DNA from: Abditibacteriales bacterium | GTDB taxonomy: Bacteria; Armatimonadota; Abditibacteriia; Abditibacteriales; JANWYM01 | Direction: 5' to 3' | Length of the DNA stretch: 11,997 nt | Assembly (NCBI GenBank): GCA_025055355.1 | Contig: JANWYM010000071.1 | Coordinates: forward strand, 1-11,997 | Part shown: in pieces, positions 1 through 11,997 of the stretch | Numbering within the stretch: position 1 is the stretch's first letter | Layout: each line of letters starts with the position of its first letter | Notes under the pieces: generated by a model | Databases searched by the model: none | What the model was told of the DNA's origin: nothing | What the model saw: the letters and a program-made list of their open reading frames with translations, nothing else | Translations under genes and position numbers: made by a program

Positions 1-3000
1 CGCAGCGGGGAACTGCCCGCCGCGCATCCGCGCCGCGTAGCGCGGCAGGTGAGCAAGCGTGGCTTGCAGGCACTCCGCCATCTGCGCTTTTTTGCCTTCG
101 GCAGCGACGCAGGCGTTCCGCGCAATCGGGCGGCGCACCTTGTAGTAAGCCCACTCCGCGCATCGCGCTGGCTCATCGCGCAGCACGATGTGCTGCGCCG
201 CCAGGGCGTAGAGCGGCAGTTGAAAGTCCGTGCCTTCGAGGGCTGCCTGCCAGCGTTGATTGCCGCTGGACTTGTAGTCGAACACCGCGTAGCGCGGCGT
301 GCCGTCTTCGTCCGGCGGCAGGCGGTCAATGCGGTCTATCTTCCCCTGAACGCATACTTGTTCCTCTCCGCTGCCGATGCAAAGCGGTTCCTCGCCTGCG
401 TGCATCCCGTAGGTCGCTTCAAAGCGCAGGGGGACGTGTCCCGCTGCCGTCAGGTGCGATTCGTGAGCCAGCCACAAGGCGAGGTCGCGCTGGCAGTTTT
501 GTTTTTCCACCTCCCACAGCCGCTCATCGCCCACCAGCCCGCGCTGCGCTTGCTCGGTAAAGTGGCGTTCGATGACTTCTTCCATCACCGCTCTTGCGAC
601 GTCCATGTTCTCTGCCGTGACCACCGTGCTGCCCGTGACCTGACTCAGTTGAGTGAAAAAACGCCGCAGGATCTCGTGCACCATCTGCCCGCGCTCGCGA
701 TGTTGCATTGTGTCGGTGGGCTCCTCTAACGGCTCAAGGTTCAGCACGTATTTGAAGTAAAAACGCATCGGACACTGACCGAAGGTGTTGAATTGGTTCG
801 CGCTAAAGCGATACCTCGCATGAAACCGCTTCGCCAAATCCTCATGAACCGCCGGGTCGGACAGCACGCCGTCGAAGTGATTGAATGGCTCCGTCGAGTG
901 GCGATGTGTTTCTACGGCGGCGGCGTGCCGCACGAATGTCAACAGATCAGCGGGTAACAGACGGCATATTGCGTGTTGCACATGGGGTATGACGTAGGGG
1001 ACGGCGGCGTCCAGCAGTTCGCGCTGGCTGCAGACGCGATGCAGTTCAGGCACGACGGCGGAAAGTTGCACGCGCGCGCAGACGGTTAGGTCGGTCGCAA
1101 AACATCGCCGCACCGCGTCCACGTAGTAGGAGGTTAGCACGGCGCGCCCTTCGGCGTCGGTGATGGGATAGCAGAGATACAGTCGCTTCGTCGCTCGCGT
1201 GACGGCGGTGTAAAAGAGAAAATCCTCCGCCGAGGTCGGCTCTTCGGGCGACAGCAGGTTGACGCTTTGCGGACGCGGGAACTCCTTCTCTACCAACCCC
1301 GCGATGAAGACGTAAGGGAAGGTCAGCCCGGCGGCATCGGTGACGTTCAGGGCGCGGACACAACCCGCCGAAGCATTCGACGGCGGCGGAGTGGTGAGCC
1401 TCAGCGCGGTTTGCAGTTCGCCCAGAAACGCGGACAGCGCAATCGCCTTTTCCGACTCGTTCAGGAAGGTCTCGGTGAACCGCATATCCTCCAACGCCCG
1501 CTGCAGTTGCTCAAAGGCGTGGAGGTCCTCGCCGCTGAAATTCAGGTCTGCCGCTATCTGCGCGCCGTCGGAATGAATGTCCAACGCGAGGCGTTCGGTG
1601 ATGCCGAAGGCGTCCATCAACTGGCGTATCGCTGCAACAATCTGGGCGCGCGTTTGGGCGCGGGACAGCGGCGCGAGCCGTTGAAAGAACGCCTCGACGT
1701 ATTCCCGCGCGCGGCGCGTCTGCTCCAACTCTTGGGCGAGATGCTCGCCATTCTCTTCAAACTCTTCGGCGAGTTCGCCCCGCTCCCATTTCTCCAAGCG
1801 CGCCTGCAACTGTCGCTCGTGCGTCTGCAAGCGCCGCTGCCAGTTGTCCTTGCCCGACGTGATGCGGGCGCGCCGGGCAACGCGGTCGAGGTCGTCGGGA
1901 GTAAATTGTCGGGAGGGTGAGGCTCCTGCCGAACCGGTGGGTAAGATGGGTTCGGCAGGAGCCTCACCCTCCCAGCTCCACCCGACGTAGTTGGATTTGA
2001 GGAACTGCACCACATCCTCGCGTCGGAAGTCGTCTGCCACGATGCGCAGCAGCGACAGAACGGTTTGCACAGCGGGGGAGCGCAGCGGCGTTTCACGATG
2101 GCTCAGGTGGACGGGAACGCCGAACGCCGCGAAAACTTCCTGCACGAGGGGCGCGTAGTCGGGCAGATGGCGAAACAACAGCGCGATGTCCTCAGGGGCG
2201 GCTTCACCGGCGAGCAGCAATCGCTTGACCTCTCGCGCGATCTCCTCCACTTCACGAAACTGCCCCGCTGCTTCGATGAGTTGCACAGAGTCATCCGCTG
2301 ATGGCTTATTTTGAGCCTCCCCCCGCTCCTCCGTATTAGGGAGGGGAGAGTTTTCGGAGAGGCTCTTATCCTCACGACCCTCAGCGAATAACGTCCTTTG
2401 CAGATGTGCCAACCCCGACTGGTCACTGGTCACCAGTAACGGGCAACTGAGGGCTTTGATAGGAAACCGCTTCTCCCACTCCTGTCGCAGGGCGCGCGCC
2501 TGCTGAAACAACGTCGGACGCGGAGAATCGAGTTCATCGGTCAAGGTAACGCAAGTTTCCTCAGCGCGCTGCACCAGACACTCGACGACATCCCACTCGA
2601 CAGGGGAGAGATGGTTGAACCCGTCCAGCAACAGAACCTTGAGGTCGTCAAACGGCGCAGCATGTCCGCTCAACAACAGAGCGCGGGCGTGCATCAGGCG
2701 TTCGTCGGCGTCGCTGACGTTGTGATGGTGGAGGAGGTTTTGATAGGCGTCGTAGATGAGATACAACTCGCGCCGCTGCGCTTCCAACAGGGAGGACGCC
2801 GCCGCCGTCTGAAGCCACTGCTCTGGCGACAGACCTTGCTGCTTGGTGCGGCGGAGGAAGCCCTGAAGCATGTCCAGAAAACCGGGAAAGGCGTAAACTG
2901 AACGGAAGAAGGTGAAGGCGTCCTGCTGCGCCAAGCGTTCGACTATCTGACGCAGTAAGATGCGCTGGGTCACCGACGGCAGTTCCGTGCGGAACGGGTC

Positions 3001-3240
3001 GTGTTCGTTGAGAAGCCTTTGTGCGAGGGCGTCAATCGTGTAGATATGCGGCTGCCACAAGCCGCGCAGATCGGTTTCCAACAGGATGAGTCGTCGCGCC
3101 TGCGCGCACTGCGGTTCTGTAGGCATGAGCAAAACGACGCGGCGCGAACCGTGTCGCACAACCGCATCCGCGTAACGCTGTCGCATCCACCTTGACTTGC
3201 CGCTGCCAGCCGCCCCGCAAAGGACGGTCACGTCGGGCAC
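1..3240 (-). CDS. addB: AddB/RexB-type ATP-dependent helicase-nuclease subunit (PD-(D/E)XK nuclease family), partial: the C-terminus runs off the window start
   Basis: Continuous minus-strand reading frame from the GTG at 3238-3240 to position 1, with no stop. GGAGG sits 9 nt upstream of the GTG. The N-terminus has a Walker A motif (VLCGAAGSGKS). The C-terminal part has a RecB-family nuclease motif (GKIDRIDRL...AVFDYKSSGN) and a conserved Cys (FNTFGQCPMRFYF) like the AddB Fe-S nuclease domain. The ORF track does not list it only because no stop occurs inside the window. Confidence 0.75.
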   Translation of the reverse strand, partial: MPDVTVLCGAAGSGKSRWMRQRYADAVVRHGSRRVVLLMPTEPQCAQARRLILLETDLRGLWQPHIYTIDALAQRLLNEHDPFRTELPSVTQRILLRQIVERLAQQDAFTFFRSVYAFPGFLDMLQGFLRRTKQQGLSPEQWLQTAAASSLLEAQRRELYLIYDAYQNLLHHHNVSDADERLMHARALLLSGHAAPFDDLKVLLLDGFNHLSPVEWDVVECLVQRAEETCVTLTDELDSPRPTLFQQARALRQEWEKRFPIKALSCPLLVTSDQSGLAHLQRTLFAEGREDKSLSENSPLPNTEERGEAQNKPSADDSVQLIEAAGQFREVEEIAREVKRLLLAGEAAPEDIALLFRHLPDYAPLVQEVFAAFGVPVHLSHRETPLRSPAVQTVLSLLRIVADDFRREDVVQFLKSNYVGWSWEGEAPAEPILPTGSAGASPSRQFTPDDLDRVARRARITSGKDNWQRRLQTHERQLQARLEKWERGELAEEFEENGEHLAQELEQTRRAREYVEAFFQRLAPLSRAQTRAQIVAAIRQLMDAFGITERLALDIHSDGAQIAADLNFSGEDLHAFEQLQRALEDMRFTETFLNESEKAIALSAFLGELQTALRLTTPPPSNASAGCVRALNVTDAAGLTFPYVFIAGLVEKEFPRPQSVNLLSPEEPTSAEDFLFYTAVTRATKRLYLCYPITDAEGRAVLTSYYVDAVRRCFATDLTVCARVQLSAVVPELHRVCSQRELLDAAVPYVIPHVQHAICRLLPADLLTFVRHAAAVETHRHSTEPFNHFDGVLSDPAVHEDLAKRFHARYRFSANQFNTFGQCPMRFYFKYVLNLEPLEEPTDTMQHRERGQMVHEILRRFFTQLSQVTGSTVVTAENMDVARAVMEEVIERHFTEQAQRGLVGDERLWEVEKQNCQRDLALWLAHESHLTAAGHVPLRFEATYGMHAGEEPLCIGSGEEQVCVQGKIDRIDRLPPDEDGTPRYAVFDYKSSGNQRWQAALEGTDFQLPLYALAAQHIVLRDEPARCAEWAYYKVRRPIARNACVAAEGKKAQMAECLQATLAHLPRYAARMRGGQFPAA

Positions 3241-3263
3241 AGCGCATCGCCTCCTTCACAGGG

Positions 3264-3292
3264 ATTATAATGGAAGCGAACGAGAAACGCAA
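3264..3292 (-). promoter_or_regulatory. Putative sigma-70 promoter for addB: perfect -10 TATAAT (revcomp of 3264-3269), weak -35 TTGCGT (3287-3292), 17-bp spacer
   Basis: Minus-strand sequence reads ...TTGCGT-17nt-TATAAT-ccctgtgaaGGAGGcgatgcgctGTG. The -10 is a perfect consensus about 24 nt upstream of the addB start. The -35 is poor. Confidence 0.4.
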
Positions 3293-3305
3293 AGATGACA
3301 TACAG

Positions 3306-3339
3306 CAGGATGGACAGGAAAGGCATCCTGTCCATCCTG
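3306..3339 (-). terminator. Intrinsic terminator candidate for the SPFH gene: 13-bp perfect stem caggatggacagg/cctgtccatcctg with an 8-nt loop
   Basis: Perfect inverted repeat 3306-3318 / 3327-3339, starting 3 nt after the SPFH stop codon (3342-3344). On the minus-strand RNA it is followed by CUGUAUGUCAUCUUUGCGUUUCUCGUU, a U-rich but interrupted tract. Confidence 0.5.
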
Positions 3340-3341
3340 TT

Positions 3342-4115
3342 CTACAACGCCTCATCTGTTGGTTCATCGCCCCTTGCACTCGTGTTCTGCTTCAAAGGCA
3401 TCACGCCGCCCACGCCGACCACAACGGTGTTGCCGGGGGTTTGCGCGAAAGCGCGCACGGTGTCCAACTCGCGTAGGCGGAGCAGATGCGGATGTTCGGC
3501 GGCGAGCCGTGCCGCGTTCGCCAGGGCGCGCATCGCCGCGACCTCCTCGCGCGCGCCGATGAGCATGGCTTGGGCGACGCGCTTGGCTTCGGCTTCCTTC
3601 ATCAGCAGGTCGCGCACCTTCGGGGCGAGAATCACATCCTTGATGCCCACGTTCAACACGCGCACGCCGTAACCTTCGGCAAGCGGCTTGACCGCTTCGA
3701 GGATCTGCGCGTTAAGGCTGACGCGCTCCTTGAGCAGCGCGTCCACCGTCACCGCGCCGACGACGTTTCGCGCGGCGAGTTGCACGTCCTCGTAAAGTTG
3801 CGCGCCGAAGTCCGCGACCTTGTGCACGGCAGCCGCCACATCAGCGATTTCGTAATCGGCGACGATGTTGAGCGTGACGGTGATTTGGTCAGCGGTCAGC
3901 AGCTTCTGGTTGACGATTTGCACCGCTGCGCGGCGCACGTCCACGACGACGATGCGCTTGTGCGTGAACGGCAGCAGGCGATAGCGCCCCGGCTCCAGCA
4001 CGCGCACGAACTTGCCGCGTACGTAGAGCAACCCGCGCTCGTATTCGTAGATGGTAATTGCCCCGAATGTCGCCTCCCGATGTTCCGTCCCGTAACCGTA
4101 GAAGTTGAAAGCCAT
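3342..4115 (-). CDS. SPFH/band-7 domain protein (stomatin/prohibitin/HflC-like), 257 aa
   Basis: ORF-track frame 3342..4409, but the start is placed at the internal ATG at 4113-4115 (MAFNFYGYGTEHREATFGAITIYEYERGLLYV...). GGAGGTG sits 6 nt upstream of it. The protein is typical of SPFH domain members. The 98 extra upstream codons are Arg/Pro-rich nonsense and overlap tRNA-Ala. Confidence 0.85.
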   Translation of the reverse strand: MAFNFYGYGTEHREATFGAITIYEYERGLLYVRGKFVRVLEPGRYRLLPFTHKRIVVVDVRRAAVQIVNQKLLTADQITVTLNIVADYEIADVAAAVHKVADFGAQLYEDVQLAARNVVGAVTVDALLKERVSLNAQILEAVKPLAEGYGVRVLNVGIKDVILAPKVRDLLMKEAEAKRVAQAMLIGAREEVAAMRALANAARLAAEHPHLLRLRELDTVRAFAQTPGNTVVVGVGGVMPLKQNTSARGDEPTDEAL

Positions 4116-4366
4116 CGTTGCACCTCCCGTCGGGCAAGCACAGAGGCTTGCCCCTACGTTGACAACCGCCTGCCCCGCCGCGCGCCTCCGAGGCGGCTGC
4201 GGGGAGAGACACGACGACCATCTCTCCGCAGGGCAACCGCCGCGTTGGCGAGACGCGCCGACGCGGGGCAGCGGTCGCCGGTCTGAGAACCCCACGGGCG
4301 TCGCCCATCGCGGAACGCGCCGAGCGCCGCAGACGAACGCACGTGCTCGGCAGGAGTCGAACCTGC

Positions 4367-4442
4367 TGGTGGAGAGCCACGGACTCGAACCGTGATTTCC
4401 GCCGTGCAAAGGCGGCGTCGTCGCCGATTGGACCAGCCCCCC
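4367..4442 (-). tRNA. tRNA-Ala (anticodon TGC), CCA encoded
   Basis: Revcomp reads GGGGGGC-TG-GTCC...-CCGCC-TTTGCAC-GGCGG-...CACGG-TTCGAGT-CCGTG-GCTCTCC-A-CCA. Acceptor stem is 7 bp and includes the G3:U70 alanine identity pair. Anticodon loop is CTTTGCAC, with T33 and TGC. T-arm is canonical. Total 76 nt. Confidence 0.85.
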
Positions 4443-4507
4443 TCCTGCAATCTGATTGCGTTCATGAACTCCGTGAACTCATGAACTCATAAGCCCACGC
4501 CTTCTTG

Positions 4508-4583
4508 TGGGGCGACTGGTGGGACTCGAACCCACTCGACGAGAGCCACAGTCTCGCGTGCGCGCCGTTACACCACAGTCGCC
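4508..4583 (-). tRNA. tRNA-His (anticodon GTG) with a genomically encoded G-1 and CCA
   Basis: Revcomp reads G-GCGACTG-TG-GTGT-AACGGCGC-GCAC-G-CGAGA-CTGTGGC-TCTCG-TCGA-GTGGG-TTCGAGT-CCCAC-CAGTCGC-C-CCA. Acceptor stem is a perfect 7 bp. The extra 5' G opposite discriminator C73 is the histidine hallmark. Anticodon is GTG. Confidence 0.85.
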
Positions 4584-4674
4584 ATGTTTATCACTCTCGC
4601 GCATCCCCTTGCCCACCCTCGTCCCGCTTCGGGTTCGGGACTACCGCGCTGCGCACGAATGGCATCACGAACGT

Positions 4675-4750
4675 TGGTGAGGGCGGTGGGACTCGAACCC
4701 GCAATCCTCAGGTTGAAAGCCTGAGAAGTTCACCGTTCCTCCACTGCCTC
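4675..4750 (-). tRNA. tRNA-Glu(TTC)-like gene with imperfect acceptor and T stems; possible pseudogene or non-canonical tRNA
   Basis: Revcomp reads GAGGCAG-TG-GAGG-AACGGTGA-ACTT-C-TCAGG-CTTTCAA-CCTGA-GGATT-GCGGG-TTCGAGT-CCCAC-CGCCCTC-A-CCA. Anticodon arm is perfect, with TTC flanked by T33/A37. D-loop has GG. T-loop is TTCGAGT. The acceptor stem has two mismatches (C5-C68, A6-G67) and the T-stem has one C-A mismatch. Confidence 0.5.
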
Positions 4751-4805
4751 GAAAGAAACATGAACCCCCTGAACCCATGAACTCTTGAACCCTTGAACCT
4801 CTATG

Positions 4806-4881
4806 TGGCGGGGACGACGGGATTTGAACCCGTGACCTCTGGCTTGACAGACCAGCGTGCTGACCCCTGCACCACGCCCCC
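4806..4881 (-). tRNA. tRNA-Asp (anticodon GTC), CCA encoded
   Basis: Revcomp reads GGGGGCG-TG-GTGC-AGGGGTCA-GCAC-G-CTGGT-CTGTCAA-GCCAG-AGGTC-ACGGG-TTCAAAT-CCCGT-CGTCCCC-G-CCA. All stems pair, with one G-U in the acceptor. Anticodon is GTC with T33/A37. Confidence 0.85.
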
Positions 4882-4949
4882 GGTTCGATTTTGGATTTTG
4901 GATTTTGGATTGCGGATTGAGTGACCCCAAAATCCGCGATCTAAAATGA

Positions 4950-4988
4950 AAAGCCCCCTGTCGAATCTCCTTCTCGACAGGGGGCTTT
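4950..4988 (-). terminator. Strong rho-independent terminator: 15-bp perfect GC-rich stem aaagccccctgtcga/tcgacagggggcttt with a 9-nt loop
   Basis: Perfect 15-bp inverted repeat 4950-4964 / 4974-4988. On the minus-strand RNA the stem is followed by UUUUCAUUUUAG. It lies 35 nt downstream of the small ORF stop (5024) and upstream of the tRNA cluster. The flanking A-tract and T-tract would also allow it to terminate plus-strand readthrough. Confidence 0.7.
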
Positions 4989-5023
4989 GGGTGTTGCTGA
5001 TGAGTGATAGGAGACGAACCGTC

Positions 5024-5218
5024 TCAGCGCACTATGCGCTGGCTCACCCCCTGTGCAAAGAAGGCGTCCTGCTCCTGACCGTTACGCTGCGCCAGATTGG
5101 CGACGGATATGGGTAATGAGCAGCGTTCGGCGGATGTGCAAAGGCGCAGGGCACTGAACCATTTCGATTCGTGTCCTGGCTGTGTGACGCCTAATTGCAT
5201 GTTCACGAGGTGAACCAT
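5024..5218 (-). CDS. Hypothetical small protein (64 aa, MVHLVNMQLGVTQPGHESKWFSALRLCTSAERCSLPISVANLAQRNGQEQDAFFAQGVSQRIVR); may instead be the body of a non-coding RNA
   Basis: ATG at 5216-5218 is preceded by GAGGAG (5230-5235), which is contributed by the end of repeat copy A. The stop is at 5024-5026 and the strong terminator follows 35 nt downstream. A putative promoter lies at 5331-5359. Codon usage is weaker than in neighbouring genes (two TTA and two ATA codons), so coding status is uncertain. Confidence 0.25.
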   Translation of the reverse strand: MVHLVNMQLGVTQPGHESKWFSALRLCTSAERCSLPISVANLAQRNGQEQDAFFAQGVSQRIVR

Positions 5219-5232
5219 TGACAGCTTCGCTC

Positions 5233-5312
5233 CTCTGAAAATCGTCCTCGTCCTCATCGTCGTCCTCGTTCTCGAACCGCAAAAACAACTGAGGACGAGG
5301 ACGACGACGATC
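5233..5312. repeat. Copy A of a structured palindromic repeat family (5'-CTCCTCTGAAAATCGTCCTCGTCCTC...CTCGAACC...GAGGACGAGGACGACGACGAT-3')
   Basis: 14-bp perfect stem tcgtcctcgtcctc (5242-5255) / gaggacgaggacga (5291-5304) with a 35-nt loop containing CTCGAACC. The left 27 nt are 26/27 identical to copy B (10612-10638). It lies between the putative promoter at 5331-5359 and the RBS/start of the small ORF, so it would sit in the 5' leader. Confidence 0.7.
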
Positions 5313-5330
5313 GCAGTGACAACGCGCTTG

Positions 5331-5359
5331 ATTATGCTAAAATCTTCCCAGCGCATCAA
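5331..5359 (-). promoter_or_regulatory. Putative sigma-70 promoter for the small-ORF/sRNA unit: -35 TTGATG (revcomp 5354-5359), 17-bp spacer, -10 CATAAT (revcomp 5331-5336)
   Basis: Minus-strand sequence reads TTGATGcgctgggaagattttagCATAATcaagcgcg. The predicted TSS (~5324) places repeat copy A at the very 5' end of the transcript. Confidence 0.35.
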
Positions 5360-5441
5360 CCGCCTGCGATAAAAAATCTGCTGCCTTAGACGACGGCGGG
5401 CGCGGGAATGTTCCCTCGTCTTCACCGATAGGATGTCGGCG

Positions 5442-6401
5442 CTACTGTTCCGCCAGCCAGCGTTCCGCCTCAATCGCCGCCATGCAACCCATGCCCGCCG
5501 CCGTCACGGCTTGGCGGTAGATATGGTCCACACAATCGCCCGCCGCGAACACGCCAGGGATTTTCGTGCGCAGGCGCGCGTCGGTGATGAGATAGCCCTG
5601 TTCATCGAGGTCGAGTTGCCCCTTGAAGAGGTCAGTGTTGGGGATATGCCCCAGCGCGTAGAACACGCCGTCGTAGGGATAGTCCCACTCCTCGCCGGTT
5701 TTGACGTTCTTCAGGTGCGCCCCCTCAAACTTCTCGCTGCCGTTGAAGTGCGTCACGATGGTGTTCCACACGAACTCAATCTTGGGGTTTTTGAACGCCC
5801 GCTCCTGCATGATTTTGCTGGCGCGCAGTTGGTCGCGGCGGTGGATGACATACACCCTCGTCGCGTAGTGCGTCAGGAACAACGACTCCTCCATCGCGCT
5901 GTCACCGCCGCCGATGACGGCGACCTCCTTGTCACGGTAATACCATCCGTCGCAGGTCGCACAGGACGACACGCCCGGCGTTTTGCCGAACCACGCTTCC
6001 TCGCCGGGCACCTGCAACATGCGCGGACGTGCGCCGGTGCAGATGATGACCGTCCTCGCGTAATAGTCCCTCTGCCCGTCGGGATACTCCGTCGCGGTGA
6101 CCTGGAACGGATATTGTTGCAGGTCAACAGCGACGACCAACTCATCAATCGTCTCCGCCCCGAACCGTTCCGCCTGCTTGCGCATGATGCCCATCAGTTC
6201 GGGACCTTTGATGCCGTGCTCGAAGCCGGGGTAATTCTCAATCTCGGTGGTCATCATCAATTGACCGCCCGGTGGCATGAACTTGTTCTCCGGGTCGCCG
6301 CTGAACAGCAGCGGTTTCAAGTTCGCCCGCGCCGCATAGAGCGCTGCCGTCCACCCGGCGGGGCCTGACCCGATGATGATCACGTTGCGCACCTCAGACA
6401 T
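5442..6401 (-). CDS. trxB: Thioredoxin-disulfide reductase (NADPH), 319 aa
   Basis: N-terminal FAD site VIIIGSGPAGWTAALYAAR. Redox-active CATCDG motif. NADPH site VIGGGDSAMEE. C-terminal GVFAAGD. GGAGG sits 7 nt upstream of the ATG at 6399-6401. Confidence 0.92.
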   Translation of the reverse strand: MSEVRNVIIIGSGPAGWTAALYAARANLKPLLFSGDPENKFMPPGGQLMMTTEIENYPGFEHGIKGPELMGIMRKQAERFGAETIDELVVAVDLQQYPFQVTATEYPDGQRDYYARTVIICTGARPRMLQVPGEEAWFGKTPGVSSCATCDGWYYRDKEVAVIGGGDSAMEESLFLTHYATRVYVIHRRDQLRASKIMQERAFKNPKIEFVWNTIVTHFNGSEKFEGAHLKNVKTGEEWDYPYDGVFYALGHIPNTDLFKGQLDLDEQGYLITDARLRTKIPGVFAAGDCVDHIYRQAVTAAGMGCMAAIEAERWLAEQ

Positions 6402-6436
6402 TTTTCAGCCTCCTTCAACTGCTTGCGATGTGTTTC

Positions 6437-6465
6437 ATCATAATCGTTGAACGGCGCGCCGTCAA
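6437..6465 (-). promoter_or_regulatory. trxB promoter: -35 TTGACG (revcomp 6460-6465), 17-bp spacer, -10 TATGAT (revcomp 6437-6442)
   Basis: Minus-strand sequence reads cTTGACGgcgcgccgttcaacgatTATGATgaaacacatcgcaagcagttgaaGGAGGctgaaaaATG. The predicted TSS is about 28 nt upstream of the start codon. Confidence 0.55.
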
Positions 6466-6523
6466 GCGTAAGTTCCCCGCGAGGGAGATTCCCCTTGCCG
6501 TGTGTCGGCTCTGCGCATAAACT

Positions 6524-6549
6524 GTGACTCAGGAACTTTGGCAGTCACA
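6524..6549. promoter_or_regulatory. Candidate operator: 7-bp inverted repeat TGTGACT-N12-AGTCACA in the divergent trxB / secreted-protein intergenic region
   Basis: tgtgact (6524-6530) and agtcaca (6543-6549) are perfect reverse complements. They lie ~60 bp upstream of the trxB -35 and ~60 bp upstream of the ATG at 6610. TTGACT is present at 6564-6569, but no convincing -10 was found for the plus-strand gene. Confidence 0.25.
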
Positions 6550-6609
6550 ACCCGTCTAAGAGGTTGACTTGAAAAGGGTGAAATTGAGAAGAGGGAGGAT
6601 GCTTTCAGC

Positions 6610-7290
6610 ATGAAACCTTTGCCAGTTGTGTTTGCGATCGCCTCGGTGTTGCTGCTCGCGGCGCGGGGAGTGTGGAGCCAAGTCGAAGGGTTCAAGGTTG
6701 AAGTCTCCAAGGCTGCTGCGCCCGCCGATTTGCCAGAGAACATCAAGAAAATGTTGAGCCGTGACTGTTTCAAGGTGTCCGGCGCGGACGGAAAAGTTTT
6801 GGCGGAAATCTGGTGGGGGAATGCGGTCACAGCGCGAGAGTTACCCATCAAGCACGGCGACAACATGCAGGTTCTCTTTGGTCTTCCTGAGGGCGCGTTT
6901 CTGGGCGTCCTGCGGCTGCACAAAGCCGCCGTTGACTACAAAGGGGGCGGCGTCAAGGAGGGTGTTTTCACGATGCGCTACCTGACGCAGCCCGCCGACG
7001 GCAACCACCTCGGCACGGCTCCGTTCAACGACTTCGCCGTTCTGTTCCTTCCCAAGAACGACCCCGGCACGCCCGACGGCGACCGCGATGCGCTCATCAA
7101 GGTTGCCCTGACGCAAGCCGCGCATCCGTTTGCGATGGGACTGGCGGTTCCCAAGATGGACACCGCTTGCCCGTCACTGGCAAAAGGCGAAGAGAATAAC
7201 CTCGTCGTTTTCTGCAAGTTCACGGCGAAGGCAGGGGACAAGACGGAGGAAGTGAAAGTGGGTCTGATGCCGGGGTTTAAGGTGAAGTAG
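6610..7290 (+). CDS. Secreted hypothetical protein (226 aa) with an N-terminal signal peptide
   Basis: MKPLPVVFAIASVLLLAARGVWSQ is a typical signal-peptidase-I signal (K, hydrophobic core, A-x-x-W-S-Q). A GGGAGGA RBS lies upstream. No recognisable catalytic motif. Codon usage is consistent with neighbouring genes. Confidence 0.7.
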   Translation: MKPLPVVFAIASVLLLAARGVWSQVEGFKVEVSKAAAPADLPENIKKMLSRDCFKVSGADGKVLAEIWWGNAVTARELPIKHGDNMQVLFGLPEGAFLGVLRLHKAAVDYKGGGVKEGVFTMRYLTQPADGNHLGTAPFNDFAVLFLPKNDPGTPDGDRDALIKVALTQAAHPFAMGLAVPKMDTACPSLAKGEENNLVVFCKFTAKAGDKTEEVKVGLMPGFKVK

Positions 7291-7309
7291 CGGCACGTGG
7301 AGACAGGGA

Positions 7310-7334
7310 GGCGTATGAAAGTCCCTCATACGCC
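7310..7334 (+). terminator. Intrinsic terminator candidate for the 6610-7290 gene: 9-bp perfect stem ggcgtatga/tcatacgcc with a 7-nt loop
   Basis: Begins 20 nt after the TAG at 7288-7290. The stem is followed by cacacTTTCTcag, a modest U-tract. Confidence 0.45.
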
Positions 7335-7424
7335 CACACTTTCTCAGAGCCTCTCCGAAAAACCCTCGGACGCCTCAACCCGTTGAGGGAAGCGGAAAGA
7401 GATGACGGCAACCGCGTAAATCTC

Positions 7425-7608
7425 GCTCTAAACTTTTGCGTTTCGCGCTTTTCTCCCTCCCTGCTGCAGGAAAACGTCATGGCGAGCGGAGCGAAGCCAT
7501 CCCCCTACGGCGGAGATGGCGGCAGCGGCGGGGATGGCTTCGCTCCGCTCGCAATCACAGGCATTTCCGCGGAAAGGGCAAAGCGCAAAAGTTGAGTCTG
7601 GCTCTAAA
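7425..7608. repeat. ~170-bp nested palindromic intergenic element: 23-bp perfect inverted repeat (7482-7504 / 7530-7552, 25-nt loop), 10-13-bp outer inverted repeat (aacttttgcg 7431-7440 / cgcaaaagtt 7584-7593) and 8-bp direct repeats gctctaaa (7425-7432, 7601-7608)
   Basis: gcgagcggagcgaagccatcccc pairs with ggggatggcttcgctccgctcgc as exact reverse complements. The outer arms and flanking direct repeats were read directly. It sits between the convergent genes ending at 7290 (+) and 7604 (-). On the minus-strand RNA the big stem is followed by CAUGACGUUUUCC, so it could act as the M50 gene terminator. Confidence 0.6.
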
Positions 7609-8305
7609 TCGCCAGCGACCTCTTTGCCGCGAATCGCTTCTGCTCCGTGCGGCTGGCGAAGTAAAGCGTGAACCCCAACACGCCCAACGCTATCAGGAAC
7701 CACAGCCCGCCCCAGACCATCGCAGGGATGCCCGTCATTTGAGCGAGCATGGTAGCGTCCGACTGGATGGAGGAGGAGTAGGGACTCAGCAGGTCTTCCT
7801 TGATGTCCAAAACGACGTAGAGGCAACTGGTAAAGCCTAAGAACCTGAGGATAAAATCGTTGACGGATTCGGGCGCTTTCAACGCCAACCCCAGCATCAC
7901 CGCACCCACCACCAGACCGAACACAAAACCAAACGCATTAAGCGTCAGCGGCACAAAGCGCACCGTCACGAACAGCAGGATGAGACCTAACGCTCCCATC
8001 AACGGACGATCGTTGTTCAACCGTGAGGCAGCAAGCAGAATGGCACTGCCCCAAACCATGCTGCCGAGATAGCCCGCGCTCAACGTGAGAAAGCCTGAAC
8101 CGCCCCACGTGTAGGTCACACCACTGAGGTCGCTGTTGACCTGAATGTTCTGAATGCCTCCACCTGTTAGCACCGCCGCCAAACCGTGGCTGATTTCGTG
8201 GAAGAACACTACGAAAACCTTGATGGGATAAATCACCACCGTGTCCCACAGAAAAAACACCCCCACGAACATCGCCACGAACAGCAGAAGATTTTTCCAG
8301 TTCAT
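7604..8305 (-). CDS. Small integral-membrane zinc metallopeptidase, Peptidase_M50B-like (HExxH in a TM helix), 233 aa
   Basis: HEISHG motif (FFHEISHGLAAVLTGG) embedded in a hydrophobic segment. About 6 predicted TM helices. AGGAGG RBS upstream of the ATG at 8303-8305. Confidence 0.7.
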   Translation of the reverse strand: MNWKNLLLFVAMFVGVFFLWDTVVIYPIKVFVVFFHEISHGLAAVLTGGGIQNIQVNSDLSGVTYTWGGSGFLTLSAGYLGSMVWGSAILLAASRLNNDRPLMGALGLILLFVTVRFVPLTLNAFGFVFGLVVGAVMLGLALKAPESVNDFILRFLGFTSCLYVVLDIKEDLLSPYSSSIQSDATMLAQMTGIPAMVWGGLWFLIALGVLGFTLYFASRTEQKRFAAKRSLAI

Positions 8306-8382
8306 CCAATACGCCTCCTGTCACGAATGAAACGCCACTGGCTTTGACGTTAAACGCGGGGGCGGGTTGCGGCGATTCCGTT

Positions 8383-9402
8383 TTACATCGTCCTTCCCGT
8401 CGCCGCCACGAACGGTTGCAGTTCTCTCATCAGTTGCTCGAACTTGTCAATCCGCAAACTCTGCGGACCGTCTTTGAGGGCTTGGGCGGGGTCGGGGTGG
8501 ACTTCGATGATGAGACCGTCCGCCCCGCAGGCAACAGCCGCTTTTGCCATCGGCGCGACGAGATACCATCTGCCCGTCCCTTGTGAAGGGTCAACGATGA
8601 CGGGCAGGTGCGACTCGCGCTTGACGACCGCCACGGCGCTTAAGTCCAGCGTGTTGCGGGTGGCGGTTTCGTAGGTGCGGATGCCGCGCTCGCACAGAAT
8701 GACGTTGGGGTTGCCCTGGTCGAGAATGTATTCCGCCGCCAGCAGCCACTCTTCAATCGTCGAAGCCCAGCCGCGCTTGAGGAGGACGGGTTTGCGCGTC
8801 TGCCCGACGGCTTTGAGCAAATCGTAGTTCTGCGCGTTGCGCGTGCCGATTTGCAGGATGTCGGCATATTCGGCGACCAAGCCCACTTTGTCGGGACTCA
8901 TCACTTCCGTCACCACCGGCAGCCCGGTCTCGCGCCGCGCCTCCGCGAGGAGTTTCAGACCCTCTTCGCCCAAGCCCTGAAAATCGTAAGGCGAGGTGCT
9001 GGGCTTGTAGGCGCCACCACGCAGGATGTGCGACCCCGTTCGCTTCACGGCGCGGGCGGTGGTCAGCAATTGCTCCCGCGTTTCCACGGTGCAAGGTCCC
9101 GCCATGACCACAAAGCGTTTGGCGTCGCCGACGGGAACGCCGCGCACGTTCACTACCGTGTCTACTGGCTTCCAATCGCGGCTGGTCTGCTTGTAGCGCT
9201 TCATGATGGGGACCACGTCCTCCACGCCTGGCAGCGAGCGGAAATGGTCAAAGTGGTTCTGCGACGGCTTCCAGCCGATGACGCCGACGATGGTTCGCTC
9301 CTCCCCCACGATGCACGAGGTGCGATAGCCACATCGCTCGACTTCCTCCCTCACCGCCTGAATCTGCTCTTGCGTGACGCCTTTGCTCATGACAATAACC
9401 AT
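8383..9402 (-). CDS. 3-deoxy-7-phosphoheptulonate (DAHP) synthase, class I-beta (AroA(G)/Thermotoga-type) with an N-terminal ~75-aa regulatory domain; 339 aa
   Basis: Catalytic core motifs [47 protein letters not shown] and [10 protein letters not shown], typical of KDO8PS-like DAHP synthases. The N-terminal extension ([32 protein letters not shown]...) resembles the ferredoxin-like allosteric domain. GAGGGGG RBS upstream of the ATG at 9400-9402. Confidence 0.9.
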
Positions 9403-9426
9403 TGCGATTCCCCCTCAAAATAAAGA

Positions 9427-9459
9427 AAAGTCATGGGATTCGTTGACTCCCATGACTTT
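9427..9459 (-). terminator. Attenuator terminator hairpin (hp2): 12-bp perfect stem aaagtcatggga/tcccatgacttt with a 9-nt loop, followed on the mRNA by UCUUUAUUUU and then the DAHP-synthase RBS and start
   Basis: Minus-strand RNA reads ...GAAAGUCAUGGGAGUCAACGAAUCCCAUGACUUU-UCUUUAUUUUGAGGGGGAAUCGCA-AUG. This is a canonical intrinsic terminator immediately upstream of the structural gene. Confidence 0.7.
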
Positions 9460-9490
9460 CGGTTGTTCCGAAACGGCGCCAGAAAAACGA

Positions 9491-9519
9491 AAGCCATGGG
9501 ATTCATGCGCCCATGGCTT
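9491..9519 (-). promoter_or_regulatory. Upstream attenuator hairpin (hp1): 10-bp stem aagccatggg/cccatggctt with a 9-nt loop, followed by a U6 tract. Its 3' arm can pair with the 5' arm of hp2 (antiterminator)
   Basis: The hp1 3' arm on the RNA is CCCAUGGCUUUCG. The hp2 5' arm is CGAAAGUCAUGGG. The two are complementary over 13 positions with one G-U. The hp1 5' arm (GAAGCCAUGGGCGC) can alternatively pair with leader codons 23-26 (GCGCUCAUCGGCUC, window 9553-9567), with one bulge. Confidence 0.6.
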
Positions 9520-9547
9520 CCGCGACGGTTCAGGCTGTGCGATACCC

Positions 9548-9631
9548 TCACGCGAGCCGATGAGCGCCCGACGCGAAGTAAAATCGCCAAGCCCAGTATC
9601 CGCCGACTTGTCTGAGTTGTCGCGTGCTCAT
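9548..9631 (-). CDS. Leader peptide (27 aa) MSTRQLRQVGGYWAWRFYFASGAHRLA, with a run of Tyr/Trp/Phe codons (UAC UGG GCU UGG CGA UUU UAC UUC); attenuation leader for DAHP synthase
   Basis: ATG at 9629-9631 with GAGGGA 6 nt upstream. Stop UGA at 9548-9550. It sits ~30 nt downstream of the predicted TSS from a perfect consensus promoter. It is the C-terminal 27 codons of the ORF-track frame 9548..9934. The longer N-terminal extension would span the promoter and is rejected. Confidence 0.6.
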   Translation of the reverse strand: MSTRQLRQVGGYWAWRFYFASGAHRLA

Positions 9632-9664
9632 CGTTGTCCCTCGCAAGGATTTCGCTTGGGGTTG

Positions 9665-9710
9665 ATTATAGCCTGTTATTTGAAAACTGTCAAGAACATG
9701 ACAAAAAAAA
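9665..9710 (-). promoter_or_regulatory. Consensus sigma-70 promoter for the leader + DAHP synthase operon: -35 TTGACA (revcomp 9688-9693), 17-bp spacer, -10 TATAAT (revcomp 9665-9670), with an upstream T8 tract (revcomp of 9701-9710 A-run), UP-element-like
   Basis: Minus-strand sequence reads TTTTTTTTGTCATGTTCTTGACAgttttcaaataacaggcTATAATcaacccc. Both hexamers are perfect consensus. Confidence 0.75.
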
Positions 9711-9827
9711 TCCTTAGCCTTAAGAGCCGCTGGGATACGATTGGAGGAAATCGGGCTGGCAGGGACGTGCCGCCCCTCCTGCCCCCGCGGTTTTTGACGC
9801 CAAGAAAAAACCATGCGCCCGCTGCCA

Positions 9828-10601
<774 letters not shown>

Positions 10602-10610
10602 GTTCTCTCC

Positions 10611-10683
10611 TACTCCTCCGAAAATCGTCCTCGTCCTCGTCCTCGAACCTCACGAACAACCGACGACGAGGACGATTTTCATG
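10611..10683. repeat. Copy B of the structured repeat family: 16-bp stem gaaaatcgtcctcgtc (10620-10635) / gacgaggacgattttc (10665-10680) with a 29-nt loop containing CCTCGAACCTCAC. On the minus strand it abuts the SDR gene RBS
   Basis: Arms are perfect reverse complements. The minus-strand RNA reads G-AAAAUCGUCCUCGUC-[loop]-GACGAGGACGAUUUU-C-GGAGGAG-uaggagagaac-AUG, so the hairpin base is 1 nt from the Shine-Dalgarno of the SDR gene. Confidence 0.7.
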
Positions 10684-10741
10684 CGGCGTGGTGTCTCGTT
10701 CGGGACAGGAACAACTCCCTTGACAATAACCACCCTCGCCC

Positions 10742-10806
10742 TCCCGAAGCGTCCTCGTCGTCTTCATCCTCGAACCTCACAAACGACCAACAACGAGGAG
10801 GATTTT
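10742..10806. repeat. Copy C of the structured repeat family (a more degenerate tandem duplicate of copy B), lying just after the glutamine-synthetase stop on the minus strand
   Basis: The 40-nt core cctcgaacctcacaaacgaccaacaacgaggaggattttg (10768-10807) is 35/40 identical to copy B cctcgaacctcacgaacaaccgacgacgaggacgattttc (10641-10680). The 5' arm cgtcctcgtcgtc is degenerate. It lies between the glnA-family stop (10814) and copy B. Confidence 0.65.
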
Positions 10807-10813
10807 GCCCCGT

Positions 10814-11997
10814 TCACACGCGTTCAAAATACCGCTGCCGCTCCCAGCAGGTCACGACCTCATCGAACTTCCGCTGCTCGGTGCGGGCGAAGTGCAAGTA
10901 GTGTTCAACCACCTCTTCGCCGAACGCCTGTCGCGCCAGGGCGCTGCTCTCAAAGGCGCGAATCGCTTCGTTCAAACTCTTCGGCACCTGCGGCAAGCCC
11001 TGGGCGGCGTAAACGTCGCCGTCAAAATGCGCAGGCGGTTCGATCTGATTGGCGATGCCATCCAGCCCCGCCGCTAAGGTTGCTGCAAACGCCAGGTAGG
11101 GATTCGCGTCCGCGCCGGGGATGCGACATTCAATCCGCAGCGCGTTGCCGTGCCCTACAACGCGAAATCCCGCCGTGCGGTTGTCGTAACTCCACGCGAT
11201 TGCCGTTGGTGCGAATGTCCCCGCCTGATACCGTTTGTAGGAGTTGACGTTCGGCGCGTAGAACAAAGCGAACTCGCGGGCGTGCGCCATCCAGCCGCCC
11301 AAGAACCAGCGGAAAATGTCGGAACAGTTCACCGTCCCCATCACCACGTCGCCGGGGAACAAGTTGCATTTGCCCTCGGCGTCCCACAAACTCGCGTGCA
11401 GGTGCATTGAAGAGCCCGCCATCTTCTCGTCCCACTTCGCCATGAACGTAATCGCCATCCCCTGCTGCAACGCGATTTCTTTCGCGGCGTGTTTGTAAAT
11501 GACGTGACGGTCTGCCGTCTCCAGAAAGTCGCCGTAGCGCAGGTTGATTTCGTGCTGCCCCGGTCCCCACTCGCCCTTGCTGAACTCGATGGGAACGCCC
11601 GAACGTTCCATCGCCCAGCGAATCCGCCCCACCAAGTCCTCGACCTTTGTGCCTTGCAAAATGTGATAGTCTTCGACATACCATCCGCTCGTTTGCAGGT
11701 CGTGATAACGCTTCTGATGCGCGGATGCGTAAGTCTCCTTGAAGATGAACAACTCCAACTCCGAACCGCCCATAGGCAGATAGCCCATCGCACGCGCTCT
11801 GTCCATCTGCTTCTTCAGAATGTTGCGCGGGGCGACGCTGACGGGAACATCTTGCTCTTCATCGAGCACGTCGCACAGCACCAGCGCCGTTTTGTCCAGC
11901 CACGCGGCGCGGCGCAGCGTTTTCACGTCGGGGAGGCAGCGGAAGTCACCGTAGCCCGACTGCCAACTGGTGAACTTGTAGCCAGGCACGGGGTCCA
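10814..11997 (-). CDS. Glutamine synthetase family protein (GlnA / gamma-glutamyl-polyamine synthetase-like), partial: the N-terminus runs beyond the window end
   Basis: GS signature regions KWDEKMAGSSMHLHASL, NVNSYKRY, RIECRIPGADANPYLAFAATLAAGLDGI and FKETYASAHQ. The first in-window start candidate is the GTG at 11987-11989, but the reading frame stays open to the window edge and ~40-60 N-terminal residues of the beta-grasp domain are missing. Confidence 0.85.
   Translation of the reverse strand, partial: DPVPGYKFTSWQSGYGDFRCLPDVKTLRRAAWLDKTALVLCDVLDEEQDVPVSVAPRNILKKQMDRARAMGYLPMGGSELELFIFKETYASAHQKRYHDLQTSGWYVEDYHILQGTKVEDLVGRIRWAMERSGVPIEFSKGEWGPGQHEINLRYGDFLETADRHVIYKHAAKEIALQQGMAITFMAKWDEKMAGSSMHLHASLWDAEGKCNLFPGDVVMGTVNCSDIFRWFLGGWMAHAREFALFYAPNVNSYKRYQAGTFAPTAIAWSYDNRTAGFRVVGHGNALRIECRIPGADANPYLAFAATLAAGLDGIANQIEPPAHFDGDVYAAQGLPQVPKSLNEAIRAFESSALARQAFGEEVVEHYLHFARTEQRKFDEVVTCWERQRYFERV

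Follow-up and report, generated by a model that had tools for sequence, protein, structure and literature searches.

Leader-peptide attenuation is known for trp, phe, his, thr, ilv and leu. Here, we describe an element upstream of the gene for 3-deoxy-7-phosphoheptulonate synthase (DAHP synthase, DAHPS) of an uncultured Abditibacteriales bacterium (GenBank assembly GCA_025055355.1, a metagenome-assembled genome), which we regard with good confidence as a ribosome-mediated (leader-peptide) transcription attenuator of a type Ibeta DAHPS gene. The stretch analyzed, positions 1 to 11,997 and thus the whole of contig JANWYM010000071.1, is called the window. Coordinates refer to the window unless another locus is named, and all parts of the attenuator unit lie on its minus strand (-).

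The trpL, pheL (pheA), pheST and his leaders follow the logic proposed here, in which a stalled ribosome selects the antiterminator, and arrival at the stop codon or lack of translation leads to termination. The his leader is a chain of helices in which A:B, C:D and E:F compete with B:C and D:E, and the chain of alternative helices in the window, with its terminators T1 and T2, is similar. The enterobacterial leaders sense one amino acid and belong to terminal-branch operons, whereas the window leader stands before the common first step. The ilvGMEDA (Ile/Leu/Val) and thr (Thr/Ile) operons likewise have mixed codons in one leader, but for different pathways. In the Firmicutes, T-boxes serve the same enzyme family by conditional termination that senses tRNA charging. 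A T-box reads uncharged tRNA through a specifier codon and the T-box sequence, and the leader described here has neither.

For a DAHPS gene itself, leader-peptide attenuation was shown experimentally at aroR-aroF of Corynebacterium glutamicum (Neshat et al. 2014, cited in PMC11802643, PMC4046766 and PMC7356990). The preliminary description of the window locus had treated such control of a DAHPS as unusual, and this precedent tempers that point. The aroR leader (Phe-Tyr-Phe) is reported to have responded to Phe and not to Tyr (PMC11802643). The likeness is that of a short ORF (open reading frame) with aromatic codons directly upstream of a DAHPS gene, in which stalling raises downstream transcription. 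The host phyla differ (Actinomycetota versus Abditibacteriota), and aroR has three regulatory codons and no Trp, while the window leader has six, two of them Trp. The relation is documented as a functional analogy, and sequence homology would not be expected. The enzyme class presumably differs as well, since we take the aroF enzyme of C. glutamicum to be a type I-alpha DAHPS without the FXD domain, and we know of no tandem terminators at aroR-aroF. A leader with Phe, Tyr and Trp codons before a DAHPS was not found described in the literature we covered, which was incomplete and did not extend to older Russian comparative-genomics surveys; nor, within the same incomplete coverage, were DAHPS leaders in Abditibacteriota, Acidobacteriota or Verrucomicrobiota. 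In a 2005 survey, "putative attenuators" of unspecified kind are listed ahead of aroA(Ibeta)>tyrA for Thermus and for Thermoanaerobacter, with no detail on a leader peptide.

The Leader ORF and Its Aromatic Codons

The unit contains a Shine-Dalgarno (SD) sequence and a short ORF rich in aromatic codons, as the preliminary description had read it. The SD, GAGGGA (9637..9642), lies 5 nt ahead of the ATG at 9631. The ORF (9548..9631) has 27 codons followed by TGA (9550-9548) and encodes the peptide MSTRQLRQVGGYWAWRFYFASGAHRLA. The presumed regulatory codons are codons 12-19 (9575..9598), TAC TGG GCT TGG CGA TTT TAC TTC (YWAWRFYF), of which six out of eight are aromatic. When the 300-nt upstream region was shuffled 5000 times at the dinucleotide level, only one shuffle contained an ORF of 10-45 codons with six aromatic codons in eight. 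Codons for Phe, Tyr and Trp are all there, as had been claimed; that one leader would sense all three amino acids is suggested by codon content alone.

A protein search gave metagenomic orthologues of the DAHPS at 94, 93, 86 and 72% identity. A DNA pattern scan of metagenomes for the YWAWRFYF codons added loci L091 and L092, along with three chance matches in unrelated genes (L088-L090); the JGI loci known from the protein search were not among its returns. The leader ORF and its aromatic run are present in every orthologous locus found, L091/92 among them, the predicted peptides being MSTRQLRQVGEYWAWRFYFASSAHRLA in L082, MSTRQLRQVGGYWAWRFYFGSSAHRLA in L083/84/85, MSTRQFRQVGGYWAWRFYFRSSAHRLA in L092, MGNRPIQLGGFGYWAWRFYFSTSAHRLA in L086 and MSTPPGNYGFWFMFHPRPAACVA in L087. 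The leader SD is kept as GAGGGA or GAGGAG in L082, L083, L086 and L092. Within the aromatic run, the substitutions among the close orthologues are synonymous only (TAC/TAT and TTC/TTT), and the flanking codons carry non-synonymous changes. The L086 leader has an in-frame 3-nt insertion relative to the window, and the first aromatic residue of the L092 leader, F6, lies outside the run.

The alignment used for conservation consists of the six close sequences, five of them distinct, without L087. An automatic alignment that included L087 misplaced hairpin 1 (see below), and this locus was compared by hand and by folding. By hand alignment, its run is Y.FWF.F, with the aromatic residues kept as peptide only. 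The 3' part of its leader is identical to the window at 20 of 26 nt as RNA, while being in a different frame with a different stop. This division, with the aromatic residues conserved as peptide and the remainder as RNA, makes sense because an attenuator needs codons in the run and pairing after it. Among the next-nearest homologues of the DAHPS, P0005 and P0012 lack a leader.

Alternative Pairings in the Leader RNA

Two hairpins lie between the leader ORF and the DAHPS gene. Hairpin 1 (H1, 9522-9488) has 13 bp, folds with -20.9 kcal/mol (z-score -5.0) and is followed by UUUUUCU. Hairpin 2 (H2, 9461-9425) also has 13 bp, folds with -19.0 kcal/mol (z-score -5.3) and is followed by UUUAUUUU. A terminator scan passed over both because their loops are 9 nt and the limit of the scan was 8. 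These are the two terminator-like hairpins noticed earlier, but the CCATGG core then ascribed to both is not shared: H2 reads TCATGGG/CCCATGA, and the common core is CATGGG/CCCATG. Tails included, the H1 and H2 units are identical at 34 of 49 positions. The 258-nt leader as a whole folds with -113 kcal/mol (z-score -6.5).

The leader is best followed as six segments in order of transcription. Segment 1 (Z, 9619..9633) is the start-codon region and pairs with segment 2 in untranslated RNA. This 1:2 helix is an inverted repeat (I3) of 15 nt with 87% complementarity (9619-9633 with 9558-9572), and it is in the minimum free energy (MFE) structure of the full leader. Segment 2 (A, 9555..9572) comprises leader codons 21-26 and has segments 1 and 3 as alternative partners. 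It begins 13-15 nt past the last aromatic codon and ends 5 nt ahead of the stop, so placed that a ribosome at the leader stop codon covers it. An inner hairpin between segments 2 and 3 (9521..9554), which is the MFE structure of the nascent RNA, stacks under the 2:3 helix. Segment 3 (B, 9506..9522) is the 5' arm of H1, CGGAAGCCAUGGG, plus the loop sequence GCGC; it can form 9-14 bp with segment 2 before segment 4 is made, or 13 bp with segment 4. Segment 4 (C, 9480..9500) is the 3' arm of H1 (9500-9488) together with the U-tract UUUUUCUG (9487-9480). Segments 3 and 4 make up terminator T1, whose U5 tail is kept in five close orthologues. Segment 5 (D, 9448..9461) is the 5' arm of H2 and pairs with segment 4 as a second antiterminator. 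Segment 6 (E, 9417..9438), the 3' arm of H2 (9438-9425) with its U-tract (9424-9417), completes terminator T2 with segment 5; the tail of T2 is less conserved than that of T1.

The complementarity between the 3' arm of H1 and the 5' arm of H2, 13 bp with one G-U, had been proposed as an antiterminator, and it is real. The resulting 4:5 helix folds with -25.6 kcal/mol (z-score -4.6) and was recovered independently as I1, of 21 nt and 86% complementarity, in a repeat search whose four inverted repeats were H1, H2, 4:5 and 1:2. If segment 4 has to pair with both segment 3 and segment 5, a likeness of H1 and H2 is to be expected. Pairing of codons 22-26 with the 5' arm of H1, 12-14 bp stacked on the inner hairpin, amounts to -36.7 kcal/mol (z-score -2.8). 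The preliminary description had seen that leader codons can pair with this arm and had called the pairing an anti-antiterminator; the pairing stands, but it is better regarded as the antiterminator of terminator 1.

L087 departs from this arrangement in an informative way. The AGCCAUGGGCGC motif of segment 3 is identical there, and the inner hairpin has a shorter counterpart. Its H1 and H2 are dissimilar, yet the 4:5 overlap is retained as a 7-bp equivalent of different sequence, UGUGGCC:GGCCACG. Since H1 of L087 has no U-tract, this locus is left with one weak terminator, which suggests that the tandem-terminator design arose within the clade of the window.

Proposed Operation of the Switch

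The sequence elements are seen directly, as are their conservation and the energies and geometry of the competing folds. From these we infer where transcription starts, that the leader is translated, that ribosomes stall on it, which amino acids are sensed and that termination is conditional, put together as follows. A ribosome would translate the 27-codon leader from a transcript starting at a consensus promoter. When charged tRNA-Phe, -Tyr or -Trp is scarce, it would stall in codons 12-19. Stalling would free segment 2, so that the 2:3 helix forms with the help of the stacked inner hairpin and blocks T1. Segment 4, left free, would then form 4:5, T2 would be blocked and the polymerase would read into the DAHPS gene. 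With plentiful aromatic amino acids, the ribosome would reach the UGA and cover segment 2, letting 3:4 form and terminate transcription at its U-tract, and a polymerase escaping T1 would meet 5:6. Without translation, 1:2, 3:4 and 5:6 would form, again giving termination. The T1 unit would thus be a classical 1:2/2:3/3:4 attenuator, with T2 as a second stage coupled to it through 4:5. It differs from the classical leaders in that the regulatory codons lie between segments 1 and 2 instead of inside segment 1, and in that two of the three helices of the terminated state are terminators with U-tracts.

This scheme was followed in silico by folding only the RNA 3' of the leading edge of the ribosome, at successive transcript lengths. 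The untranslated leader folds as 1:2, 3:4 and 5:6. With the A site at codons 12-17, 2:3 on the inner hairpin is the MFE structure before segment 4 is made (-35 to -37 kcal/mol), and 2:3 with 4:5 is the MFE structure before segment 6 exists (-65 kcal/mol). Once everything has been transcribed, the terminated fold is better in this stalled state by just 0.4-5 kcal/mol. Moving the A site to the stop codon leaves segment 3 with almost no structure (-7 kcal/mol); the 3:4 helix then forms (-23.5 kcal/mol), with 5:6 after it. Read-through upon stalling and termination upon reaching the stop, as had been predicted from inspection of the window, are thus reproduced by folding, and in five of the six orthologues tested, including L082, L083, L086 and L087. 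L092 shows the switch in part; when the ribosome is halted on the final aromatic codon of this leader, folding prefers the terminated state even before segment 6 is made.

Several observations weigh against this interpretation. Once segment 4 and the U-tract of T1 are out of the polymerase, 3:4 is more stable than 2:3 by 3-6 kcal/mol, and with a stall at the last aromatic codon by 12-17 kcal/mol. Because 3:4 is thermodynamically favored as soon as segment 4 has been made, read-through depends on kinetic trapping. If only the footprint of the ribosome is masked, the terminated fold is always the MFE structure; we judge this way of folding unrealistic because it allows the 5' untranslated region to pair around the ribosome. 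The U-tract of T2 is imperfect, and in L086 it is a poor one. In L087, H1 lacks a U-tract, that of H2 is weak and the leader ATG has no clear SD ahead of it. The attenuator presupposes that transcription and translation are coupled in Abditibacteriota. Sensing of three amino acids may not hold, because the C. glutamicum precedent responded to Phe only. Finally, the covariation is weak, shuffles matching the observed values in 15-88 of 500 trials.

The weakness of the covariation is attributable to the few and very similar sequences. About 90% of the alignment cells are paired in both conformers, with four compensatory pairs among only five distinct, closely related sequences. Two of these pairs belong to 1:2, where they preserve the helix in L086 (A-U to G-C and A-U to U-A); 3:4 (H1) and the inner hairpin have one each. 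L087, compared outside the alignment, supports the helices with different sequences. In the orthologue comparison that the preliminary description had suggested as a check, leader ORF, aromatic run and hairpins are thus conserved, and the covariation counts agree with the model without clearly exceeding those of shuffles.

Other Readings of the Element

The likeness of the two hairpins could have another origin. H1 and H2 (CAUGGG-N9-CCCAUG) might bind an RNA-binding regulator that stabilizes or melts the terminators according to the supply of aromatic amino acids, with the small ORF incidental or secondary. Systems of the TRAP, PyrR or BglG type typically have RNA sites repeated in tandem, and both the close match of the two units (34/49) and their invariant stems among the close orthologues would fit. 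However, pairing of segment 4 with segments 3 and 5 already requires that similarity, and in L087 the hairpins are dissimilar, yet the 4:5 overlap is kept. The H1 loops vary freely (GCGCAUGAAU, GCGCACAAGU, GCGCAGGACU and UUGCUCCAACU) while the stems are fixed, which argues against loop-specific recognition by a protein, and there are no (G/U)AG repeat arrays. A protein would also leave unexplained the aromatic run, its synonymous-only changes and the way segment 2 fits the places where the ribosome would stall or stop. Moreover, unrelated phyla combine aromatic leaders with unrelated terminators (see below). We consider control by such a protein very improbable. A different division of labor would have the leader act on translation or mRNA stability, by reinitiation, remodeling of the ribosome-binding site or protection from Rho, with the hairpins as constitutive partial terminators or stabilizers. 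In L086 and L087, T2 makes a poor terminator, the T1 U-tract of L082 can pair with the DAHPS SD and a review calls aroR a "translational regulatory leader peptide". But 145 nt separate the leader stop from the DAHPS ATG farther downstream, a distance too great for coupling or reinitiation, and in the folds of the window itself the DAHPS SD is not sequestered. T1 is canonical and conserved, and its 5' arm has a conserved competitor within the leader ORF. This makes action after transcription improbable, in our estimation.

It might also be asked whether the assembly is fortuitous, made of leftover intergenic terminators or REP-like palindromes and a chance ORF, or whether a micropeptide of 27 aa, made from the ORF, has a function of its own. 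Intergenic DNA that is GC-rich often contains small ORFs, and the region has no Rfam match. Yet the unit lies downstream of a conserved consensus promoter and 300 nt past the stop of the upstream gene and is conserved despite differing upstream neighbors, and the aromatic run recurs in only one of the 5000 shuffles. A functional micropeptide is opposed by L086 and L087, in which neither the N-terminal nor the C-terminal part is conserved at the protein level. We find this hardly credible, and the ribosome-mediated attenuator remains the reading that we prefer.

Known RNA classes were also sought. A T-box (RF00230) was rejected, having no Rfam match in the window at E<=10 and no GGNTGGNACC core, in a search that detects the T-boxes of L008, L094 and L095. 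A TRAP-type site, an array of 9-11 (G/U)AG triplets 2-3 nt apart that overlaps the antiterminator, was rejected as well; the 258-nt leader has only five such triplets and no run of at least five. The Rfam Trp, Phe, His, Thr, Leu and leu/phe leaders had no match by cmscan of 9300-9850 at E<=10, which returned chance-level unrelated matches only, and at the gathering threshold, no family fell on the leader in the window or in 25 related loci. The possibility that H1 and H2 are terminators of the upstream SDR gene was considered and rejected.

Aromatic Leaders and Other Controls of DAHPS

A scan of the GTDB representative genomes for DAHPS gave at least 80 loci, the closest protein among the matches listed being 60% identical, and 76 distant loci (55-60% identity) were examined. 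Among the matches listed, 24 of these 76 have an upstream ORF of 10-45 codons with at least five aromatic codons in eight within 300 nt; the controls gave 1/76 on the reverse strand and 4/380 in shuffles. They include 21 of the 22 Acidobacteriota loci and two Verrucomicrobiota loci, with a third Verrucomicrobiota locus reaching four in eight, again among the matches listed. Within the series L001-L071, these ORFs sit about 80-230 nt upstream of the DAHPS start (locus position 3001). Loci with such leaders include L021, L036, L042, L055, L002, L001, L067, L035 and L041, and examples of the peptides are MTRFTYFFAFFRYWFTRVAAGAEFVGEAYRQ, MHATRFSAGFSYRYWFESSGAGAPCVPA and MKNYRQHSFAAAWFYFFNHSQRALC, and further MTRFTYFFAFFRYWFTRV..., MHATRFSAGFSYRYWFESSG... 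and MPRTPRFTYSFTYRYFAIG... Some of the leaders, such as those of L001 and L003, have no Trp codon. Among the distant loci examined, Chthonomonadaceae, Selenomonadaceae and others have no aromatic leader before DAHPS.

All 20 of the distant leaders analyzed by folding are followed, 17-51 nt after the stop codon, by a canonical terminator with a U-tract and a hairpin of -13.5 to -23 kcal/mol. In the stalled state, the RNA of the same 20 is strongly structured (-17 to -42 kcal/mol), and in the stop state, it is nearly unstructured in 19. No Rfam family covers these acidobacterial and verrucomicrobial DAHPS leaders. On balance, we lean slightly towards a broad, hitherto undescribed class of multivalent Phe/Tyr/Trp leader-peptide attenuators on type Ibeta DAHPS, which would have arisen several times, or have spread, among Abditibacteriota, Acidobacteriota and some Verrucomicrobiota, and to which the Abditibacteriales version would add "domino" tandem terminators and six segments. 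In that case, a major part of the control of aromatic biosynthesis would fall to classical attenuation in abundant soil phyla in which, to our knowledge, almost no gene regulation has been described. The acidobacterial leaders are a sizeable and easily testable set, and aromatic leaders may be usable in synthetic biology as compact sensors of aromatic amino acid status.

Other relatives of the enzyme are controlled differently. T-boxes, with scores of 106-118 bits, immediately precede type Ibeta DAHPS at 2691-2958 in L008 (Schwartzia), at 332-613 in L094 and at 1106-1384 in L095, the last two being Firmicutes-like metagenomic next-nearest homologues of about 64% identity; among the next-nearest homologues, P0007 and P0013 are those with T-boxes. 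In an Abditibacteriaceae metagenome-assembled genome whose DAHPS is 58% identical (L054), no leader peptide is present, and the roughly 100 nt that separate the DAHPS gene from a hisC-like aminotransferase gene contain at least six copies of ATTTGCG/CGCAAAT in both orientations (1205-1315). These repeats look like operators for a DNA-binding regulator, a different solution in the same phylum. One enzyme family would then be regulated in at least three ways, by aromatic leader peptides, by T-boxes and, probably, by DNA operators.

The window locus would place Yanofsky-type attenuation in Abditibacteriota/FBP, a lineage at the level of a candidate phylum for which we know of essentially no regulatory mechanisms, and would imply that transcription and translation are coupled there. 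It would make the committed step of the shikimate pathway tunable by the charging of all three aromatic tRNAs via one leader. It changes no concept, as the mechanism and its use on a DAHPS were already known. The new features are modest: a single leader with codons for three aromatic amino acids, two terminators coupled in tandem and the occurrence in a new phylum.

The Promoter and Predicted Transcript Start

The consensus promoter behind a T8 tract reported for this strand is present, matching at 12 of 12 positions in a consensus scan. It is of the sigma-70 type (9665..9693), with TTGACA at 9693-9688, a 17-nt spacer and TATAAT at 9670-9665. The scan found no second promoter-like site in the 2.4 kb of 8300-10700, where shuffles average 0.4. 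Both hexamers are invariant across the five distinct close orthologues aligned, and the spacer is always 17 nt, though variable in sequence. The predicted transcription start would be near 9657, about 7 nt 3' of the promoter. The T8 tract (9703..9710) lies 10 nt 5' of the -35 hexamer and is possibly like an UP element. A run of 7-8 A or T residues is similarly placed in four of the five distinct orthologues compared (T8 in L082, T7 in L092 and A8 in L086), with no A/T run at that position in L083. In L087, the most divergent orthologue, the promoter (2783-2832) is a weaker one, TTGACG-17-CATACT.

Relative to the window, L092 (~5555-5612, minus strand) and L091 (~38-95) have a 58-nt insertion between the start region and the leader SD. 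The insertion folds as a strong hairpin (-27.3 kcal/mol, z-score -5.3), and the other parts of the attenuator are preserved. Such a hairpin may have come from the insertion of a small palindromic element, or it may act as an additional regulatory or pause hairpin.

The DAHPS Gene and Its Neighbors

The DAHPS coding sequence of 339 aa (9402-8383) and its SD, GAGGGGG (9416-9410), occupy 8383..9416 on the minus strand. NCBI names the product 3-deoxy-7-phosphoheptulonate synthase, from Abditibacteriales bacterium. The protein matches Pfam DAHP_synth_1 (5.7e-80) and, at its N-terminus, the ferredoxin-like DAHP_snth_FXD (9e-20), and it is therefore a type Ibeta DAHPS. By comparison with the Thermotoga maritima enzyme, the ferredoxin-like domain probably confers allosteric control as well. 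The upstream neighbor is an SDR gene in the window, L082 and L083, a hydrolase gene in L086 and other genes in L087. Since the neighbor differs between loci, the attenuator unit appears to travel with the DAHPS gene.

On the 3' side of the DAHPS gene, a gene for an M50B-family metallopeptidase is found in the window (7604-8305, minus strand), L082, L083 and L086 and not in L087. Because the 77-nt gap in the window has no detected terminator, this gene may be co-transcribed with the DAHPS gene and, thus, also be under the attenuator. Farther along, four tRNA genes, Asp-GTC, Glu-TTC, His-GTG and Ala-TGC, lie at 4367-4881 on the minus strand. The ORF at 3342-4409 (SPFH/Band 7) overlaps the tRNA-Ala gene, and therefore its real start is probably further downstream.

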